Shown here: positions 1-17,320 of the stretch, piece by piece
How the letters are laid out: each line of letters starts with the position of its first letter
Position numbering within the stretch: the stretch's first letter is position 1
DNA from: Curvularia clavata
Taxonomy: Eukaryota
DNA length: 64,000 bases
Assembly: GCA_023920165.1 (NCBI GenBank)
Contig: CP089275.1
Span: forward strand, 744,001 to 808,000
Direction: 5' to 3'
Program-made: the position numbers and the translations under genes
Notes under the pieces: model-generated
The model's database searches: none
Seen by the model: the letters and a program-made list of their open reading frames with translations, nothing else
What the model was told of the DNA's origin: nothing

Positions 1-550
1 ATAAGGAAGAGGACTAGGAGGAGTTAGAGAAGCCTAAAAACGTCTAGGTTAGCTCTAATTAAGCTAAGTTGCTTTAGTTACTACTATAGTACGAGGACTT
101 TGTAGATTTAGCTTTAGAAGAGAATGCTAAGTGTCTTACTAAGTATAGCCCGTATAATTTAGTAATAACTTTAAAAAAAGATACTACGCCATTATATTAG
201 CCGCTATATAGGCTCTTGAAGAGCGAGTTAGTGCTACTCTAGAATTACTTGCGTAAGTATCTCGCGAGAGGGTAGATTAGATATTCGAAATCGCCAGTAG
301 ACGCACTAATACTCTTCGCGAAGAAAAAAGATAGTATAATAAGATTATATATAGACTATAGAGGTCTAAATAATATAACGCTTAAAAACTATTACTCTTT
401 ACCCTTAATTACGGAGTCTTTAGATAGATTAGCTAAGGCAAAATTCTATACTAAGCTAGACGTCTAAGAAGCATATTATAGGGTGAGGATTAAGAAGGGA
501 GACGAGTGGAAGATAGCTTTCCGCACTAGATATGGCTATTTTAAATATAC
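1..550 (+). mobile_element. RIP-degraded Ty3/gypsy retrotransposon fragment (reverse transcriptase N-half), element A
   Basis: Stop-riddled frame reads ...[87 protein letters not shown], the canonical gypsy RT signature; TpA-rich; breaks off abruptly at ~550. Confidence 0.92.
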
Positions 551-629
551 TACTGTAATAAAATTATTACTCTTTGTATACCTCTACACTCATCTCACCT
601 CTTACAGCCGCTTGATATAGACTGTTTTG
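551..629 (+). mobile_element. Short pogo/Fot1 DDE transposase fragment
   Basis: Reads NKIITLCIPLHSSHLLQPLDIDCF (DDE_1 motif LC.P.HSSHLLQPLD); similar to the reverse complement of ~6935-7015 in the pogo element. Confidence 0.8.
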
Positions 630-1011
630 TGTTAAGAGTATGATCTCGAGTGGAAGTAATATAAGACTTCTAGTGTCAAGATCTTCTTAGGTTAGTTTTC
701 GCGGATAAAGCAATAGTGTGTTATGAATAAAAGTTCTGTAGTAACTATTATATTATAGATACTATACTCGTAACTTAAATTAAATATATTAAGCTATAAG
801 GGCCTAATATCTATTCCTATATATTTATAGTGCTCGCAACTCTTGGTTAGAAGAGTCTAAGTAATCCTCGGTAGCTTATGTATGAGGAGCATTCCTCTAT
901 AGCTTAAGCACGAAGAGCCTGCCAAGACCCTTCCTTAGATATACGCTACTAAGGAGGTTACGTAATATATGCCCCTGCGTTACATATAGCTAGGTCAACT
1001 GGTCGTTAATA
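630..1011 (-). repeat. 3' LTR of element B (~382 bp)
   Basis: Starts TGTTAA and ends TTAATA (TTAACA after a RIP CA>TA change); followed by a pyrimidine-rich tract at ~1012-1045, i.e. a polypurine tract on the element strand. Confidence 0.7.
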
Positions 1012-1111
1012 CTTCTTAACTTAACTACTATACTTCTTCCTCCCTAGTTTATAATACTATCCTTCTCCTCCCTAAACTTATCCTCAAGCTTTTCCTTATA
1101 TCTAGCTAATA

Positions 1112-1624
1112 ATATCTGCCCCCAGGTCTAAAGAATATCTTCGTCTTACTCTTAAGATTCGTCGTAACGGTCTCCCCGCGCCCGTCCCTTATAATTATTA
1201 TTTTGTAAATAACTATTAGTACGTTATAATGCCCAAAGTCGACGGCAAGTGTTTGAAGTGCTCTGAGTGCACTCGTCTAGATTATCTATGTATTAATATA
1301 TTATAGATGTCGTTAGATAAGACTTATAAAAAGTATTAAAAGAAAGTAGATAAAGATAAGTAATTATTAGCTTAAGTAATTTTGTGGTTAATGCGAAATA
1401 AGAAGATTCTAAAATAGACTAAGGAACGTACTGCGAAGAAGACTATGTATTTAGCGAATTCCTTACGCGAAAGTAGTAATAACGTAGACGCGCAAGAGTC
1501 CCTAAACTACCTTATAGCCAACGCGTTAGTAGAGTTCTCGTCTATTATATAGAGCACTTTAGATTCTCTAGACGCCCTAGCGTTGTCCTCGAATTCTAGT
1601 AATACTCCTATTTTTTCTTTCTAA
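1112..1624 (+). pseudogene. Antisense accessory ORF (~170 codons) of retrotransposon B; Cys-rich Zn-cluster-like motif plus coiled coil, RIP-inactivated
   Basis: One frame from ATA (RIP'd ATG) at 1112 to TAA at 1622-1624 with only RIP-type TAA/TAG stops; reads GLPAPVPYNYYFVNNY*YVIMPKVDGKCLKCSECTRLDYLCINIL*MSLDKT...LMRNKKILK*TKERTAKK. Confidence 0.7.
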
Positions 1625-2542
1625 TAGTAAGTTCTTTTTATAGTTTTATAGTATCTTTTAATAATTACTAAGATTATCCTCTAGTTTCTATATATTTTTA
1701 CTATTATTATATCCTAACTATTTAACTAGATACTTGGTTTTGTTACGCGTAGTTTAGTATACTAGAATTTTCTCAACTTCAAATTCATCTTCTTCTTCTA
1801 GTTCGAAATAGAATATTTTTTATAATAGTATTTTAGAGTCTACTAGTTTTAATAACTTAATGTAAAACTTTAGATATATTTTTGTATCTAGTAGTAGATT
1901 AAGTATATAGGTAACTAGTCTATTTTAGATTTTAATTAAAAATAGCCTAATATAGATATTATCTAATCTCTTATTTGGTTGTATCGTGCGAAGGTTCTTT
2001 ATAAGCAGATATACTTTATCCCCCTTCTTTAGCTAAAGTGCTATTTTTCTTTTCTAGTTAATATATAAGATACTTTAGCGTTAAACCTTTTTAAGTAATT
2101 TTCGTAGTTCTTTATATATTTTCTTCATTTCTTTAGCTATAGCGATAGCTACTTTTATTTTTAAACTTGGTAACATTCTAGTAAAGAGATTCGGGTGTCT
2201 TCTATAGTTCGCATAAAACGGTGTTTGTTTCGTTAATTCTAATAGCTTATTATTATATGCCAGTTATACTATAGATAGCAGTCATACCTAATTATTTTAT
2301 TAGTGGTTGCTATATATCCTAAGATATATTTTTATCATACGATTTATTCTTTCTATTTATCTATTAGTCTCTAGATAGTAAGCTGTAGATAATTTTCTTT
2401 TAGTACCTATTTCTACTATAAGTATAGTCTAGAAATTTAATATGAAAAGCTTATCTCGATTGCTAATAATCGACCTTAGTATTCTATAATATCTAATAAT
2501 CTTATTATAGATAACGTGCGCAAGTTGTACTATAGTATAGTC

Positions 2543-3057
2543 TGTAAGAAAGTTGTAGGTAGGTAAATAGAATAACTTTCTTAATTAACTAAAATAGCTT
2601 ATTAAGAGGTGAGAAATAGATATAAAATATCTAGTAAGTGGTCAAAATGTAGGTAATAAGTAGATATATTAGAGCTAGGTTAACAAATAACTATAGACAG
2701 TCAGCGTCTTTTATAGACAACTAACGGAGATAGGCGCTGCGTCTATTTCCTATCTTGATTTCAAATCAACTACTAGACTAAAGTATAATTAGATTAGTTT
2801 TTTATCTTTTTTATGATTTATAAGATTTTATTATAGACTAAAATCTTTATAATCTAGCTTGCTAAGCAAGCTAGATCTAAAATATAGAATAATGACGTCT
2901 TATATCTAGATAAGAAAGCGGAGAAATACTTAAAATACTCGGCAGTTAATAGCTACATCAAATGTAGAGCTACAAGAACAAAAACAACTAATTTGAATAG
3001 CTAATCTTTTATAGAATAATACTAAAATATAATATAATAATTATATTATAATTTACA
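2543..3057. mobile_element. Solo LTR (515 bp) inserted in the integrase of element B
   Basis: TGTAA...TTACA termini; perfect 5-bp target-site duplication TAGTC at 2538-2542 and 3058-3062; removing it restores the integrase frame (..FQKDY/TIVQLAHVI..). Confidence 0.88.
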
Positions 3058-6000
3058 TAGTCCTTTTGGAATAGTATGTATTTAGCGTATTTCGTGAATC
3101 TGTTAATAACGACTAGTATTGCGTTATAAACTGTGTCGGTAATAGGGTCCGTTAATAGTGGTAGTTCTATAACGAAGTCCATAGAGATGTCTATCTAGAG
3201 TGTATCTGGCAGTTCTTGTATTTACATCTCTCCATATAGTGCGTGAGTGCTATATTTATTTTTTTAATAATATTCACATTTAGCGATAAAAACTACAACC
3301 TTTTCTTTTATTTTGCTAAATTCGAAGTTCCTTTAAATTAGTTCTATTATTCTAGCGATCCCGGGGTATCTATATATAGGGTCGTTATAATATTACTAAA
3401 TAATTGCTTCCTACTAGTCTTCAGATATATTATTTCCAATTATTATAAGTAGGTTAAGCTCGTATACTAGACTTAATATTCTATCCTTATTTATCTATAG
3501 TATTGGTCAGTCTATAATAGTTTTTATTTCTGCGATATCTAGTCTTCTACTAAAAGCGTCTGCTCTACCATTATCTTTTCCTAGTATATATACGATTTTA
3601 AACTTGTATTGCCCAAACAGCTTAGCCCATCGGGTTTATCGGCGGTTGAGAACCTTAGTGGTAGTGAAGTGGGTCAAGTTCTTATAATCCATGTATATAG
3701 TGAGTTCTAAGCAGCTATATACGTAGACTCTCTAGTGTTATATACAGGCTACTATAGCTAGTAGTTTTTTATTGTATACGTTATATTGTTTTTTAAATTC
3801 TAAAAATTTTCTTAAATAGTATATAATTAGGTGCTATTTATCTTCGTATAGTTAGTATATGCATCCTTCTAGAACTAGGTCTAATATATTAGTTTTAATT
3901 TGTAGTAGTTTATTTAGTTTGAATATTCTAAGGTATAGTACTTTTATATATGCTTCTTTAAGTGTTTCGAATACGATTTCTCCTTTAGGTCCTATATTAA
4001 AGTAGTCTACTACTTGTTTTTTTAATAACTATATAAGTAGAGCTGCGATTTTCAAGAAATTCTTAATAAATACTCTATTAAAGTTTATAAATCTTAGAAA
4101 GAATTGTACTTCCTTAAGCGTGTCTAGTAATGGCTATTCTATAATAACTTTAATTTTTTCTTTACTTATCTATACTCCTTATTTTCCTATAGTATAGCCT
4201 AAGAAGTCGATCTAAGTCTTATAGAATTTATACTTCTAAGGTTTAAGTCTGAGGCTATACTTGTCTAAAGCAGTCAGCACCTTATGGATATATTTAGTAT
4301 ATTATTCCTTATTCTTAGAGTAGACTAAGATGTCGTCTAGATATATAACAACAAATATATCTAGGTAGGGCCTAAGTATATTATTAATAAGTTCCTAGAA
4401 TGTGGCTAGGGCGTTTATAAATCCGAATAGTATAACTATATATTTAAAATACCCGTATCGTATTCTAAAAGCTATTTTCTATTCTTCGCCTTCTGCAATT
4501 CTAATAAGGTGGTAGCCGTCTTATAGATCTAGTACTGTAAAGATCTTTACTTATATTAGTCGATCCCTTAATTCTATAATATTTAGTAGCGGGTATTAGT
4601 TCTTAATAGTGATATTATTAAGCCCTTAGTAGTCGATATATAGTCAATCTAATCTGTCTTTCTTTAGTATGAATATAATTAGTACTCTAGCTAGTAATTC
4701 TGATTTTTATATATACCCTTTCCTTTAGGCTTTATCTAAATACTCTTATAGTACTTTAAGTTCTTATTCTATTAGTTAATATATTAGGCTGAAAGATAGT
4801 TCCTTTTCTTTCTAGATCACGATTCTATAGTCCTAAGATTAATACTTTAGTAACGCGTACTTATCTACCACTTCCTAAAATAAATGTTCTAGATCTCTAT
4901 ATTATTTAGGGATTTCTAGAGTTACACTTTTTTTCTTTTCTCTAGCCTCGTAGTCTATTAGCCTAGTTTCAGTATCTACTAAGTTTGGCTTCCTACTCTA
5001 GGAACTATCTTTTAAGTATACTCGTTTCTCTGCGTTATTATACTATTTGGTAATATTACTCTTATCTACTATCGAACTCTGCTAATACGTAGGCTAGCTT
5101 ATGGTTACGCCTAGTCTATAGCACTTGAATTTAAACACTTTTAACTTCTAGTTAATCTATAGATTGTATTCTCGTAGCTATAGAAGTCCTAAAATAATAT
5201 TATAGATAGCTAGTCTAAAGACGTTTAGGTCTACTTTCTTTTTATACTCTTAGATGCTAAGTGTTACTTGTCTAATCTCGTCTATAATTCTGTTTCCTTT
5301 AGATATTAGTTCGCCGCTAGCGATATATAGTAGGTATAGCTTTTGTTTCTGCTATATTTTAAGTCTAGCTCGTTATACTACGTGCGCTAAAACGTAGTTT
5401 GTCTATAATCCTAAGTCTACTAATACCTATATCTATATTCTACTAAGCTTTACTATAAGCTTAATCAATCCTAGAGAGTTTATTAAGTTAATTTTCCTAG
5501 AGAGGCCCTACCTTTATAGCGCTAGTCTAAAAAAGTCTATAATTCCTTTATAAATCTATTATAGAGTTTCTCTACTTCGTATTTCTTGTATTTATCTAAG
5601 AGATAAGTGTGCTATAAGGGTTAGTTATATACTTATTATACGTTACCTTTACTTCAAATAATACAGATAGTTTGTATATCTACTACTTCTCTTAGGCTAT
5701 CTCTTCCTAGGAAGTGTATTACGGTGCGCTTATCCTATAGATGCCTCGCGCATTCTATATTAGTATACTCTGACTATAATCTGTTGCATTTAGGATATTT
5801 GGGAACGTTAGTTAGGTTCTAGTCGGATCCTTGCTTAGCTTGCCAATATACTAGATAAAAGTCGTAGACGCAACCTGTCCAGTAAGTCTACGTATACTTA
5901 TAGTTGTTTACATAGTACTAGTAGAGATTAAGTTAGTACCGATTGTCGCGTGTCCAGTCTGCTTGTGCCTTTTTAGCCTATTAAGATGTCATTATAGAGT

Positions 6001-6100
6001 TCTCCTTCCAGGGGGTTTTCTTATCTTTGGGGAACTTCGTATTTCCTCGTAGTTGTTAGATGTTGGCCGTAATATACGTGTAGTCTGGTAGTTTCTAATT

Positions 6101-8254
6101 AGTTACAGTAGAATTATAACGTACCTCACGGGTTCGCGGTCTACACAGGTTCGCGGTCCACTTTTGCCAAGACCCTACCAAAACCACTACATTATAGCCT
6201 AATACAGCCCAACCTTAGCTAGTTTAATATAAAAAAATATAAAATACTATTCAGAGTCTACTTCTACTTCATTCTTACACGTTCGCGCATTATACCTAGT
6301 CCTATTGCACCGTCCACACCACTATTGAGACGGTTCACCCACTTCAGCGCGCTTCTACTTCTTTAACTTCTTCCCATTACTACGCACCCTAAAGTCCTAG
6401 AGAGCAGTTAAGCGCGCCCTATCTTCAACTATTAAAGTCCCCTCTGCCTAAATCTGCTTTCTTTTATATAATTTTCGTCGCGTAGCGGCTGTATTAGCTG
6501 CTTCAAGCTCACTAATCCGTTTTTATACTAATACTAGCTTATGCGCGATAATAGCTACCCTCTTTAAGACCTTCTCAAAAGCCTCTACTATAGACGTTAG
6601 TAAGCTATCTAGATGCCTCTAAATCCTCTACTTTACTAGCGTCGATTGCGACCCTATTTCAAGAGTATTCCTCGGGGTTTGCAACAGCCAGGGCTAGATA
6701 TCGACAGGTAGGGGTGATAGAGTGCGCAACTAGACATTAAGAGCGGATATAACCCGTTCTAGATTAGATAGAACCAATCCAGCGCCTCAAAACTCTCCTT
6801 AGACATTACTAGCTATAAATAATGCGTTAAAAGCCCGCCTAAAGCAAGATAGGAACTCTTATTTAGTAATATAGTTAATCTAGATACGCATAAGCAATTC
6901 GACTTAGCGCCCATAGGCCTACTTTAAAAGGGCAAAACAGCCCACATTAAGCGGCTATAAGAGATAAAACGAGTGTAGAGACATGCAAAAAGTAACAATT
7001 TTATTATCTTTACAGTATTTTTAGAAATCCAGCAAGTTATAGCTCTCATAGCCATTAATAAAGAGTAGACAGTAGATACCTACCACCTTCTTCTTTATAT
7101 ACTCATTAAAGTGCTTTAGCCACGCAAGACTAAGCTCATTAGTCGTCCAGCCGTTCTCAGAGACTCCAATAACCCAGTTCTAAAGTATATCTCCATCTTT
7201 ATACCAGCTTAAAAGATAGTGGCGCGCCTTAAGTATAATAAAGGGCGGAATCGTCCACCTGGTCGCATTAATGCCCTAGATAACCGTCGCCCACTCTCTA
7301 TTACCAGGCTGGATAGTCTTTAGCCGTCCACGTCTCTCTAAAGCTATAATAACTACTCTAGGAGTAATCTAGCCCATCATAAAGCCTATCTCGTCAAAGT
7401 TATACGTGTCGTCATCTTAGATACCATACTTAGCTTTCATATTAGCTACTAGGCCAAACCAATCTTAAATAGCCTTAGGATCCTTACAGAGTGCTCTCTT
7501 ATAGTTATACTTACGATTAAACTTTACTTTAAGCTTAGGGCAGCGCTTAACAAATATACTAGGCTAGTTTTAGCCAACCTAGCCTAAATTACGCTCAGCG
7601 TGCAAGAAATTAGCCATATTAGCCACATCTGCGAGCCTAGAAGGAAATCCACGTAAACCAAGATCAAGAATATGCTCAACAACCACCTCCTCCTCAAGCT
7701 TAGTTAGATTCATTATTTTAGGCCTATAATCTGCTTGTGAATCCCTTCCGTCGCGTCTTTAACATAGTGTTATTCAAGAGACGTTATAAAGAGCTGCAGT
7801 GCGTCGTTCTAAGAGATTCGCGTCCTATTTAAGAGCTTGAAGAGCAAGCTGTATTTAACATTCACTAGAAGACTATAACTGCTGTTATTATTATAACATT
7901 TGTGGGTAGTAGGTATTTTGGTAGGGTCTTGGCAAAAGTGGACCGCGAACCCGTGTGGACCGCGAACCCGTGAGGTACGTTATAGAATCTATAAAATATA
8001 CGTAATATATTTTATAGTAATATTCTACTAAGCCTATAAGACGTATAATTACTTATACGTTATTAGCTAGTAATATAGTTCTCTTTTAGAGAGGTCCCAA
8101 TATAGGCTTTATCCTTCTTTCTTCCCATATCTTGCACTATTCCTCTCTGTCAGGTTTGTAACAATAGCGATCTTTATCGTACATTCTAAGTAGTTTCTCA
8201 ACCTTTTGTCATCAGTATCTAGAGAGGAGATCCTTCTCCTTATTACTTGTAACA
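6101..8254. repeat. Probable LTR-like segment (~290 bp once the pogo insertion is removed), split by the 6119-7980 element
   Basis: AGTTACA at 6101 and TGTAACA at 8248-8254 form near-perfect 7-bp inverted termini; no matching TSD; not similar to the 630-1011 LTR. Confidence 0.4.
6119..7980 (-). mobile_element. Full-length pogo/Fot1-family DNA transposon (1862 bp), transposase RIP-inactivated
   Basis: ~65-bp TIRs ACGTACCTCACGGGTTCGCGGTC... at both ends with an internal direct repeat; TA TSD at 6117-6118 and 7981-7982; minus-strand remnants YNFDEIGF, QPGNREW, SENGWT, HSFYLL*PLNVGCF. Confidence 0.95.
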
Positions 8255-16199: not shown

Positions 16200-17320
16200 T
16201 GACATTTTCAAGACGCAATGCTTAATATAATAGCAATGTAGGATTATTCTTTTTTACTTACTCGAGGTAAAATGTAAATCTTAGAAGTATGTGTGTATAG
16301 TTTTCTTTCTGTCGATTTATCTAAGTGTAGAGTGGTGATGTTGTAGTCGTGGTTTTGCTTGCAGTTACGCTGTCGGCCTTCCTTTCCTTACATGATTTGA
16401 AACCCTTCTATGGAAAGAAGGCTTTTAATCGACCTTATAGAATAGATTAACCTGAGATCTGTAATCTATGGTGCTAAAATGTATTGCAAATTCAATGGAT
16501 ATTTTCTAATACTCAATAGTGTCCCCAATCTTTCTACTAATATCGAATATTATAGTAACCCTTTTTCTTCTTTTTATATACTCTAAGAAATATAGTATAT
16601 TACAAGTAACAAAGAAGGATTCTCTGCTTTGTTGAAAGATGTACAAGGGAAAAAGTCAGGTGGCTGGGCCTGGCCACCCGGGTAACTGACATATATATAC
16701 TCTTCCCTGTCTATCTTAGTTAGCCAATGAATCCATTATCCAACATCCTTGACGCAGGAGTCATGGTTGAAGGCCAACTAGCGACCACGTCAGAAGGTAA
16801 TAATCATCGCGGTGCTTAGAGTCACGTGATGCCCCATCAGGCCAAGGCTGGCTATGAGCGATGGCAGACCTACCTATAATAGCAGCCACCGTCAGGAAGG
16901 ATCCGACCATCAGTGATAGCACGAAACTCTCTAATAGCAGGACCGAAGGCAATAGGTATAGCAATAGGTTGGATTTCATTACTTGTTATGGTCAATTTAC
17001 AATAGTTCATCTCTTATATACATAGTTAATTAAGAAAGCTACTTTGTCTACCTACCTCCAACCTTCTTACATATTTAGCTATCTTATCACCTCCAATTCA
17101 CGAACTCCAACGCCTAGTAGTTAATACAAAGATAGTAGAGCAGGCATAGTAATAGAGTAGGGTATTAAAATTTACAAATCTAGGGGTAGAAAATAGCTAA
17201 ATTTAGCATAAAACCCTAACACTAAATCTAATTTAGTACGAATCTAGATGCGATTCGCCGCGTTATATTGGTTAGGGATTGAGGATAGAGAGTATTATTC
17301 AAGGGAGTCTATACAGTATG
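16200..17320. repeat. AT-rich intergenic region with TpA-rich RIP-like patches (probable TE relics)
   Basis: Composition only (16200-16620 and 16980-17270); no recognisable coding motif. Confidence 0.3.

Follow-up and report, generated by a model that had tools for sequence, protein, structure and literature searches.

A RIP-decayed antisense gene between pol and the 3' LTR of a fungal Ty3/gypsy chromovirus, with intact relatives that encode a protein with a Zn2Cys6-like cysteine pattern

Introduction

It is already known that retrotransposons can carry a gene in antisense behind pol, ahead of the 3' LTR. The closest described case is brtn of the Botrytis element Boty, which passages in PMC7264820, PMC8365987, PMC4227169 and PMC5987419 present as an extra antisense gene at this position and which, according to the passage in PMC8365987, is missed by the current B05.10 annotation. 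In plants comparable frames, named aORF-3R, are described in parts of PMC7264820 and PMC11963269 for maize Grande (gene23), rice RIRE2, Silene Retand and Phaseolus PvRetro13. The pertinent sections of PMC7264820 report an own promoter for the Grande antisense ORF, state that no clear similarity to other proteins has been described for any aORF-3R protein, and locate the antisense promoter of HTLV in the 3' LTR. In the literature covered, which includes few subscription journals, no description was found of an antisense ORF with Zn2Cys6-like features in retrotransposons of fungi; the excerpts of PMC3248453 ('LTR Retrotransposons in Fungi') contain neither 'antisense' nor 'zinc', and those of PMC6317226 contain no aORF terms.

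Fungal LTR retrotransposons are usually annotated as gag-pol only, and a small third gene is either missed or called an anonymous 'Zn(2)-C6' or hypothetical host protein. Recognising such an antisense gene avoids that transposon genes are counted as host transcription factors. Should it encode a regulator of the element, it would also provide a handle on how a retrotransposon controls its own expression or interacts with genome defence, in fungi with genomes shaped by transposons and RIP.

HBZ of HTLV-1 is an antisense gene, expressed from the 3' LTR via a spliced mRNA, that encodes a dimerising bZIP regulator. Zn2Cys6 domains have the consensus spacing C-x2-C-x6-C-x5-12-C-x2-C-x6-8-C. The lysines by which Gal4 and Ppr1 contact CGG lie between Cys2 and Cys3, and the coiled coils of the Gal4 type are short and parallel.

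We analysed a stretch of 64,000 nucleotides of Curvularia clavata (contig CP089275.1, hereafter the window), for which an initial annotation, made from the letters alone, had proposed that a Gypsy element carries an extra antisense frame of about 170 codons with a Zn-cluster-like cysteine pattern. Here we describe the decayed frame and its element, the intact relatives found elsewhere and what their protein may do.

Results

The host element

A degraded Ty3/gypsy pol, with a protease region, RT, RNase H, integrase and chromodomain, occupies positions 1577 to 5591 on the minus strand. Pfam domains RVT_1 (E 8.5e-21), RT_RNaseH (E 1.7e-15) and Integrase_H2C2 (E 0.0037) were identified on this strand from approximately 4630 down to approximately 3250; integrase and a weak Chromo match (E 6e-4) extend the pol matches to about 1634, and tblastn with intact relatives places pol at 5591..1604. 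Some 470 nt of foreign sequence interrupt it at 2582-3053. The part that codes for the chromodomain lies at 1634-1783 (minus strand), its Chromo E-value comparing with 5.6e-20 and 1.4e-18 in the intact relatives L005 and L006, respectively. With RT, RNase H and integrase in the same pol as a C-terminal chromodomain, the element is a Ty3/gypsy chromovirus. In the intact pol of L006, RT, RNase H, Integrase_H2C2 and Chromo are all present, and both relative pols that were tested contain Chromo, SH3_Tf2-1, rve and Integrase_H2C2.

At the 3' end of the element a polypurine tract (PPT; 1060-1072, minus strand), which reads GGGAGGAGAAGGA on the element strand, adjoins the LTR edge and belongs to a block that is conserved in 8/8 aligned sequences. 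The LTR itself is placed at 719-1056 (minus strand). Its right edge, at 1056, follows from alignment and reads TCGTAACA in the relatives, with the RIP form in the window; the left edge, at 719, is putative and was placed by the mirror-image terminus TGTTATGA only. Beyond the LTR, at 629-718 (minus strand), lies a leader-like sequence that is homologous to the stretch directly upstream of the gag ATG in L005 (window 629-705 versus L005 4099-4174: 74% over 80 nt, E 7e-9), and because of this homology the LTR seems to be common to a second, truncated tandem element. At the other end, alignment to the relatives revealed a C-terminal gag remnant at 5666-5881 (minus strand), the sole trace of gag; the element is 5'-truncated ahead of a DNA transposon at 6115. 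Neither a repeat search nor self-blastn of the window identified a second LTR. An inverted match, 556-629 with 6933-7006, was considered as LTR and rejected, being a fragment of a DDE_1 transposase.

The antisense frame and its decay

On the plus strand, opposite to pol, a single frame of 171 codons runs from 1112 to 1624. It starts with ATA, where the relatives have ATG, and contains eight stops, seven internal plus the terminal TAA at 1622-1624, against 11-19 stops in the other five frames over the same positions. The ORF listing holds no ORF of at least 40 aa at 1112-1624, hence the frame is, as the initial annotation had remarked, invisible to the ORF track. That annotation was right that the frame converges on the end of pol, and the relation goes beyond mere convergence: the pol frame stops at 1577-1579 (minus strand), so the two overlap by approximately 48 nt rather than abut. 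Its estimate of about 100 bp to the 3' LTR was too large, since 55 nt separate the start of the ORF from the LTR edge at 1056.

Comparison with intact relatives shows how the frame decayed. The residue encoded in the window is present in one of the five nearest intact relatives for 115 of the 171 codons. For 55 of the remaining 56, C>T or G>A changes alone suffice; none calls for the reverse direction only, and the lone exception is the terminal stop. At each of the seven internal stops the relatives have a codon for Q, W, K, E or R. The proposal that the lesions are of RIP type only is thus borne out. On the window frame itself, Pfam gave sub-threshold coiled-coil-like matches only (DBINO, UTP20_C). 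Between positions 1 and 6100 the RIP indices are RIP-like as well, with TpA/ApT of 1.5-1.8 and (CpA+TpG)/(ApC+GpT) of 0.32-0.58; for 9000-64000 the corresponding values are 0.85 and 1.21. Transitions predominate among the 1651 aligned pieces of DNA sequencing run X1, in which a loose end at 1508 belongs to a less mutated copy in the same organism. Read by eye in the ORF frame, that copy gives CPAADALVGF, as in the relatives. We conclude that 1112-1624 is almost certainly a dead copy of a real element-borne gene. The window copy is a RIP-destroyed pseudogene, without function.

Homologues and conserved layout

Intact homologues are stand-alone proteins of 165-178 aa, the best matching with an E-value of 9.1e-55 and 60% identity over 99% of the query. 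A protein search yielded 13 proteins at E<=0.01 among 36 candidates. The profile search identified 316 cluster representatives at E<=1e-3, 154 of them at <=1e-10 and 19 at <=1e-30, and a word-index search with the distant alignment A5, which covered lengths of 78-392 aa, gave 118 proteins, all without an organism name; the Atlas taxonomy reads 'Ascomycota' only. Scanning viral contigs with alignment A2 gave no further loci. The named homologue matches include proteins of Periconia macrospinosa, Macroventuria anomochaeta and Sporormia fimetaria, and no Botrytis or Sclerotinia protein occurs among them. Relatives have been annotated as genes, among them SETTUDRAFT_166766 of Exserohilum turcica, with the UniRef name Zn(2)-C6 fungal-type domain protein. 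Seven longer representatives (222-407 aa) showed no extra Pfam domain at E<=0.01, with sub-threshold coiled-coil-like matches only.

The initial annotation had staked its proposal on intact relatives carrying the antisense frame, and all nine related metagenome loci do: in each a small ORF lies antisense and converges on the chromodomain end of pol, and in seven the two frames overlap. Upstream of the ORF, at 55-104 nt, the PPT and the LTR edge are conserved as well, and many homologues reside on contigs of 6.0-6.9 kb, which is the length of the element. These elements, one group of Ty3/gypsy chromoviruses in Dothideomycetes, carry a third gene in antisense, placed between the end of pol that codes for the chromodomain and the PPT/3' LTR.

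A conserved palindrome, GCGGGG-TT-GCCCCGC (CGG-N7-CCG), precedes the ATG by 30-45 nt in L004 and L005 and has an imperfect form in L006-L008; L001, L002 and the window lack it. It is a candidate binding site that we do not use as evidence.

Selection

Substitution rates were determined over codons 1-125, outside the overlap with pol. The comparisons of L003 and L004 with L005 gave dN 0.034 and dS 0.94-0.99, hence dN/dS of 0.03-0.04, and those of L006 and L007 with L008 gave dN/dS of 0.06; for more distant measurable pairs it ranged from 0.09 to 0.38. Across lineages with saturated synonymous sites the frame is open at 165-178 aa. By this test, which the initial annotation had suggested for un-RIPped relatives, the antisense gene in the intact relatives is under strong purifying selection, with values of 0.03-0.06 between moderately diverged copies. 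Because of this selection and the 316 cluster representatives, the gene is probably a widespread and functional accessory gene of these elements.

Antisense transcript and putative intron

Three contigs, L003, L007 and L008, lack exactly 57 nt that are retained in L004, L005, L006 and L009. The segment, GTTCGT...CCTAAC...(C/T)AG in the direction of the ORF, begins 1 nt past the stop codon. The ORFs on either side of this difference are almost identical (L003 versus L004 99%, L007 versus L006 100%). Since the precise absence concerns a GT..CTAAC..AG segment, the antisense RNA is apparently spliced, and the ORF strand thus appears to be transcribed in the relatives; alternatively, the three contigs might be DNA deletion variants. 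By position, the segment corresponds in the window to a putative 58-nt intron at 1627-1684 (plus strand; GTAAGT...CTAAG...TAG), 2 nt past the stop.

Runs X4, X5 and X6 were guessed to be RNA. At 80% likeness X6 provided one contig of 310 nt over 1103-1297, at a depth of 2.8, with 41 differences and a jump to 2543, too weak and uncertain to count for or against expression.

Cysteine cluster, helix and predicted dimer

The six cysteines of the pattern C-x2-C-x6-C-x12-C-x2-C-x6-C are invariant in 9/9 unselected close relatives, and a relaxed six-Cys pattern occurs in 59 of 80 representatives of 140-230 aa. The spacing is one that Zn2Cys6 domains of the Gal4 type (PF00172) allow. In the window the cluster region lies at 1190-1291 (plus strand; codons 27-60). 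Its first three positions now encode Tyr (TAT, TAT and TAC), Y27, Y30 and Y37 corresponding by G>A to Cys in the intact relatives, while C50, C53 and C60 are still Cys. The initial annotation had derived this pattern, followed by a charged coiled coil, by reversing RIP in the window; its inferred cysteines are cysteines in the un-RIPped relatives, in which the cluster is followed by a predicted long helix.

Profile methods were less decisive. Pfam Zn_clus was matched below threshold in six of nine members, at a best E of 0.23, and the intact relative P0002 scored 10.6 bits where the cutoff is 21; a PDB profile search found Gal4 1aw6 at a non-significant E of 0.21. An AlphaFold2 model was made from alignment A3 (67 rows), the members of which were chosen for having the Cys pattern. 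It has a mean pLDDT of 82.5, and two short helices (residues 28-32 and 51-56) precede a long one at 65-120, equivalent to window positions 1304-1471 (plus strand; codons 65-120). The nine best PDB rows of a Foldseek search with this model are all Zn2Cys6 DNA-binding domains, but at E 0.35-1.1. By VIA-align, residues 24-63 superimpose on Gal4 1d66_A with Z 2.4 and rmsd 1.3 A (34 aligned) and on Ppr1 1pyi_A with Z 2.5 and rmsd 1.3 A (35 aligned); for the cluster overall, in a model from which the metals are absent, Z is a low 2.4-3.1, with an rmsd of 1.3-2.0 A across 34-38 residues. The modelled fold may also reflect Zn2Cys6 structures that AlphaFold and ESMFold have learned.

Basic residues are not distributed as in Gal4 and Ppr1. 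In alignment A3 basic residues are rare at the six positions between Cys2 and Cys3 (K/R fraction 0.01-0.33), so the DNA-contacting lysines expected in this interval are not conserved there. Conserved basic residues do occur before Cys4 and between Cys5 and Cys6 (positions 49, 55, 56 and 58), and Arg/Lys that flank the cluster are conserved as R9, R11, K49, R55 and R/K58.

The predicted homodimer of P0002 scored 0.51 against 0.01 for the best control, with runs that share at least 98% of the contacts and a partner pLDDT of at least 78. Among proteins of solved structure, 21 of 30 pairs and none of 23 single chains attain this mark, and passing it may also reflect likeness to solved coiled coils. 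The predicted interface comprises residues 63-110 of the long helix in antiparallel arrangement (contacts at i+j of approximately 175). The initial description as a Zn2Cys6-like DNA-binding and dimerising protein thus agrees with the spacing, the modelled fold and the predicted homodimer, and disagrees with the Pfam threshold and the residues between Cys2 and Cys3. Its further proposals, that the gene was captured, may be driven by an antisense LTR promoter and regulates the element or counters silencing, are conjectural. We consider it more likely than not that the protein is a zinc-cluster dimer; that it acts as a sequence-specific DNA-binding regulator of the element is a tentative suggestion, with the odds somewhat against it.

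Discussion

Comparison with described systems

Boty resembles the present element in being, as far as the passages that describe it go, a fungal chromodomain-bearing Gypsy element with an antisense extra gene between pol and the 3' LTR. The host class differs, Leotiomycetes for brtn and Dothideomycetes for the named relatives here, and the likeness is one of position. A Cys cluster, a coiled coil and an intron are not mentioned for BRTN in the passages that cite it.

With the plant aORF-3R, as treated in the relevant sections of PMC7264820, the gene shares position and orientation, an ORF in most copies and conservation like that of other element proteins; here it is antisense between pol and the 3' LTR and is present and conserved in 9/9 related loci. 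The plant elements with aORF-3R are non-chromovirus lineages with long spacers between pol and LTR, whereas the ORF described here is short and overlaps pol. Unlike the aORF-3R proteins as reviewed in those sections of PMC7264820, its product has a recognisable Zn2Cys6-like pattern.

Gal4-type factors (Gal4, Ppr1, Put3, Hap1, Leu3, Pho7 and AlcR) are similar in having six Cys at allowed spacing and, as far as the model goes, a short helix starting at each CxxC and a helix after the cluster that pairs two chains, superimposing at 1.3-1.8 A over 34-36 residues. The protein studied here differs in its size of 165-178 aa, without the fungal-specific regulatory middle domain, in being transposon-encoded, in having its basic residues in the second half-cluster instead of the first, and in its helix of approximately 55 residues, predicted to be antiparallel. 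HBZ offers an analogy: it lies in antisense near the 3' end of an element that replicates by reverse transcription, has a spliced mRNA and encodes a small, dimerising, transcription-factor-like protein. It is an unrelated protein of an animal retrovirus, and the analogy serves as a working model only.

Proposed function

The best overall explanation, to which we assign a probability of roughly 0.6, is that the window holds a dead copy of an element gene and that the protein of the relatives is a nuclear Zn2Cys6-like regulator. Intact relatives would transcribe the gene against the direction of gag-pol, into an mRNA that has a small intron right behind the stop codon. In its product a basic helix would lead into a Zn2Cys6-like cluster with two zinc ions, and a subsequent helix of about 55 residues may pair two copies. 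Encoded by the element and acting in the nucleus, the protein could bind nucleic acid and thereby regulate how the element is transcribed or replicated. More speculatively, and in our judgement rather unlikely in its full form, this chromovirus clade might possess its own sequence-specific regulator, an unusual Zn2Cys6 relative made from a spliced antisense mRNA, in which a long antiparallel coiled coil spaces the clusters some 6-7 nm apart. Such a protein, encoded at the 3' end, would be the counterpart in fungal retrotransposons of the antisense regulators of retroviruses. It might then bridge two DNA sites, for example both LTRs, or one LTR and a site in the host genome, and so switch between sense and antisense transcription or guide the element.

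Alternative explanations

The most serious rival accepts a real element-borne gene and makes its product an adaptor or chaperone, which might bind RNA, Gag, integrase or the chromodomain, or else a protein of the host, for instance a silencing factor. The unconserved basic residues between Cys2 and Cys3, which reading of CGG would demand, point this way, as do the failure to reach the Zn_clus threshold and the antiparallel dimer model, which separates the clusters by the length of a helix pair of approximately 45 residues, one at either end; nuclear import and accessory-protein roles are also listed as options for antisense ORFs in the section concerned of PMC7264820. Cysteine spacing and modelled fold are nevertheless those of Zn2Cys6 DNA-binding domains, and conserved Arg/Lys flank the cluster, and we regard the adaptor as doubtful. 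That the antisense RNA is the functional product, forming dsRNA or siRNA with the element's genomic RNA while the frame is incidental, seems improbable. The transcript does overlap pol and is apparently spliced inside the chromodomain-coding region, and regulation by dsRNA is raised as possible in the consulted part of PMC7264820, yet an RNA role predicts neither dN/dS of 0.03-0.06 outside the pol overlap nor six invariant Cys in a conserved open frame. A role of the RNA and one of the protein could coexist.

Apart from the preferred regulator, the remaining readings concern the origin of the frame. The annotation of relatives as ordinary genes, SETTUDRAFT_166766 for example, might suggest a host-gene fragment or an unrelated nested insertion beside the element. 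This is very improbable and contradicted by synteny, with the same neighbour in the same orientation in 9/9 independent loci and overlapping frames in seven, next to a conserved PPT/LTR edge and often on contigs of element length. Finally, AT-rich RIP-mutated DNA is rich in Tyr, Asn, Lys and Ile codons, and selective reversal of RIP can create patterns, so that an open-looking frame could in principle arise by chance. Such an origin has a negligible probability and is refuted by the E-value of 9.1e-55 to intact proteins, the eight stops versus 11-19 in the other frames and the 115 of 171 codons that are unchanged.

Degraded host element

The AT-rich start of the window (GC 27-35% in the first 6 kb, ~47% elsewhere) is marked by repeat-induced point mutation (RIP), with TpA/ApT at 1.5-1.8 and (CpA+TpG)/(ApC+GpT) at 0.32-0.58, compared with 0.85 and 1.21, respectively, in 9000-64000. 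It contains a degraded Ty3/gypsy pol on the minus strand, which shows RVT_1 (E 8.5e-21), RT_RNaseH (1.7e-15) and Integrase_H2C2 (0.0037) in a single read-through frame, as well as a weak Chromo match (6e-4) at ~1634-1783 (-). Using tblastn with intact relatives, pol was traced from 5591 to 1604 (-) with a ~470-nt gap at 2582-3053, and a gag tail at 5881 to 5666 (-) was the sole gag remnant. Frame reading places the pol stop at 1577-1579 (-).

The gap is a non-pol insert of ~470 nt that breaks the integrase; palindromes lie within it at 2852-2876 and at 3023-3055. On the left it is flanked by 2543-2591, which is similar (86%) to window 17023-17071, and 2543-2603 has a depth of ~196 from one contig of run X6, a run guessed to be RNA.

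A RIP-killed antisense gene

Opposite pol, 1112-1624 (+) was found to be one frame of 171 codons with seven internal stops and a terminal stop, the other five frames having 11-19 stops each; this agrees with the single ~170-codon frame described in the initial annotation. Its invisibility in the ORF listing was likewise borne out, as no ORF of at least 40 aa is listed at 1112-1624. The read-through translation, with stops written as X, was used as query and found intact proteins of 157-178 aa: 13 of 36 candidates were homologues at E<=0.01, the top match having E 9.1e-55, 60% identity and 99% query coverage. When compared with the five nearest relatives, 115 of the 171 codons encode a residue that matches a relative, while 55 of the remaining 56 are explicable by C>T/G>A alone, the terminal stop being the sole exception, and reverse-only changes number zero; the lesions are thus of RIP type, as had been proposed. 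The start, ATA, corresponds to ATG after G>A. Y27, Y30 and Y37 align to cysteines of the intact proteins and C50, C53 and C60 remain Cys; the intact proteins have the pattern C-x2-C-x6-C-x12-C-x2-C-x6-C exactly at the predicted place. The window copy is therefore a dead pseudogene. DNA run X1, which carries the same organism label, yielded 1651 pieces with at least 80% likeness over window 1-8000, differing overwhelmingly by transitions. At a loose end at 1508 the ORF frame, translated by eye, encodes the CPAADALVGF of the relatives and hence less mutated copies are present in the X1 DNA.

Conservation of position and selection

A metagenome scan gave 61 pattern matches, from which nine loci (L001-L009) were confirmed. 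In all nine, L009 by means of tblastn, the ORF and a Gypsy pol lie on opposite strands and converge at the pol C-terminus. Seven loci have overlapping frames (L004 and L005, 92 nt; L006, 71 nt), and a short gap separates the frames in L001 and L002. Integrase_H2C2, rve, SH3_Tf2-1 and Chromo (5.6e-20 and 1.4e-18) were detected in each of the two intact pols scanned. Every aligned sequence has, 5' of the ATG, the LTR terminus, which reads TCGTAACA on the ORF strand and TGTTACGA on the element strand, and then a polypurine tract; this alignment places the LTR edge of the window at 1056 and its polypurine tract at 1060-1072. The distance between LTR and ORF start is 55 nt for the window and 104 nt for L004.

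Many homologues are on contigs of 6.0-6.9 kb, approximately the length of the element. Named relatives are all from Dothideomycetes, viz. Exserohilum turcica, Periconia macrospinosa, Sporormia fimetaria, Macroventuria anomochaeta, Boeremia exigua, Cercospora kikuchii and Hortaea werneckii. Among 1.84 billion cluster representatives, a profile search identified 316 with E<=1e-3, of which 154 reach <=1e-10 and 19 reach <=1e-30, mostly of 140-230 aa; no additional Pfam domain was detected in the seven longer representatives scanned.

The frame might be incidental or function in RNA only. This is argued against by Nei-Gojobori dN/dS estimates over codons 1-125, the part outside the pol overlap: L003 and L004 versus L005 show dN 0.034 and dS 0.94-0.99 (ratio 0.03-0.04), and L006 and L007 versus L008 a ratio of 0.06, low values in moderately diverged, un-RIPped relatives. 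More distant pairs with measurable dS gave 0.09-0.38, several pairs being saturated. ORF identity and pol-tail identity correlate with r 0.69 over 28 pairs from eight loci, a small sample of pairs that are not phylogenetically independent. The ancestral gene was an element-borne, selected, protein-coding antisense gene, in line with the extra antisense ORF of the initial annotation; the proposed zinc-cluster type is partly supported, as detailed below.

L009 has RIP-like indices (GC 0.43, TpA/ApT 2.41) with its layout unchanged, and hence RIP-killed copies of the element also occur in environmental fungi. The gag is long (664-673 aa) in L005, 2100-4118 (-), and L003, 3751-4491 (-), with Retrotrans_gag, one CCHC knuckle and a Cys/His-rich C-terminal extension without Pfam match.

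Protein structure

The six cysteines are invariant in nine of nine close relatives, and 59 of 80 representatives of 140-230 aa have the pattern, both sets being unbiased; in the 67-row alignment used for modelling invariance is by construction, since rows were picked for the pattern. The AlphaFold2 model (mean pLDDT 82.5) has helices at 7-19, 28-32 and 51-56 (both short) and a long one at 65-120. The best nine PDB rows in Foldseek were all Zn2Cys6 DNA-binding domains (Hap1, Put3, Pho7; E 0.35-1.1). With VIA-align, residues 24-63 superpose on Gal4 (1d66_A, Z 2.4, rmsd 1.3 A, 34 aligned), Ppr1 (1pyi_A, 2.5, 1.3 A, 35) and Leu3 (2er8_C, 2.7, 1.5 A, 36), Z scores that are too low alone. A PDB profile search listed Gal4, Leu3, Lac9, Pho7 and Ppr1 at E 0.21-7, interspersed with coiled-coil proteins. 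The Pfam Zn_clus threshold was not reached: six of nine members matched, with a best E of 0.23, far under the cutoff.

The two-copy prediction scored 0.51 versus 0.01 for the best control; among solved proteins, 21 of 30 pairs and 0 of 23 single chains attained the mark. Runs had at least 98% of contacts in common and a partner pLDDT of at least 78. The predicted interface covers residues 63-110 with residue i paired with ~175-i, hence the predicted dimer is antiparallel. These models support a putative dimer of the protein.

A putative spliced antisense transcript

In the pol-tail comparison the chromodomain core is 19 codons short in L003, L007 and L008. At the DNA level exactly 57 nt are absent (L003 ~523-530, L007 ~726-733, L008 ~908-915) that are present in L004, L005, L006 and L009. 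On the ORF strand the segment reads GTTCGT ... CCTAAC ... (C/T)AG, with GT-AG ends (CT..AC on the pol strand) and, 12-16 nt 5' of the AG, a branch motif of fungal type; it starts 1 nt past the ORF stop codon. Since the ORFs of L003 and L004 (99%) and of L007 and L006 (100%) are near-identical, the same precise loss is seen in two lineages. The simplest reading of these sequences is that the three contigs represent spliced antisense mRNA with an intron in the 3' untranslated region. Were they DNA copies, the loss would delete 19 in-frame codons of the chromodomain core. The window has comparable signals 2 nt past the ORF stop: GTAAGT at 1627-1632, CTAAG, and a TAG ending at 1684.

Proposed function

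We propose that the gene would be transcribed opposite to gag-pol and its transcript spliced directly after the stop codon, and that the product would be a small zinc-cluster protein, pairing via its long helix, that binds nucleic acid and may thereby regulate the element. The leading alternative is an adaptor protein without DNA binding, which is favoured by the Pfam threshold failure, by the predicted antiparallel dimer geometry and by missing canonical basic residues: none are conserved between Cys2 and Cys3, where the K/R fraction is 0.01-0.33. Conserved basic positions are R9, R11, K49, R55 and R/K58, plus an LDR/KTR motif after Cys6.

TTATAA(G) TATA-like boxes occur between polypurine tract and ORF start in L004 (1790-1866), L005 (4560-4639) and the same region of L006-L008. 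These five loci also have a palindrome there, GCGGGG-TT-GCCCCGC (CGG-N7-CCG; imperfect in L006-L008), which is absent from the aligned upstream regions of L001, L002 and the window. The region is a possible promoter or operator. All seven intact loci in the alignment carry CACGTG palindromes in their LTR.

Comparison with known antisense genes

The brtn gene of Botrytis Boty was reportedly first described by Zhao et al. in 2011. Antisense accessory ORFs of LTR retrotransposons are a known class. A review lists plant cases located between pol and the 3' LTR in Grande (gene23), RIRE2, Retand and PvRetro13 (PMC7264820), and this and other papers cite one fungal case, brtn, in Boty-like elements of Botrytis and Sclerotinia (PMC7264820, PMC8365987, PMC4227169, PMC5987419). 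Like our gene, brtn is a fungal antisense gene between pol and the 3' LTR, a likeness in position and orientation. According to the review, clear protein similarity is described for none of these ORFs (PMC7264820). The literature searched yielded no paper reporting an antisense gene of Zn2Cys6-like type from a fungal retrotransposon. The protein type is of interest, its functional role being a prediction from sequence and models.

Neighbouring transposon relics

A pogo/Tc5-type DNA transposon relic at 6115-7984 (-) (DDE_1, E 4e-18, many stops) borders the Gypsy element on its truncated 5' side; the 76-nt TIRs of the relic, 6115-6190 and 7909-7984, are 93% complementary. RIP-mutated transposon pieces form a mosaic at the window start: another Gypsy RT fragment at 90-557 (+) (tblastn 44-54% to the relatives' pol; RVT_1 4e-6) is directly followed by a short DDE_1-like transposase fragment at 556-~700 (+) with an inverted match to 6933-7006 (81%). 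Window 629-1056 comprises the LTR beside the antisense gene and then leader sequence, of which 629-705 matches L005 4099-4174 (E 7e-9), just 5' of the L005 gag ATG. The order pol, antisense ORF, LTR, gag also occurs in L004 (1260-1863) and L005 (4092-4636). This arrangement points to one LTR common to tandem elements or, for the L004 and L005 contigs, to assembly collapse.
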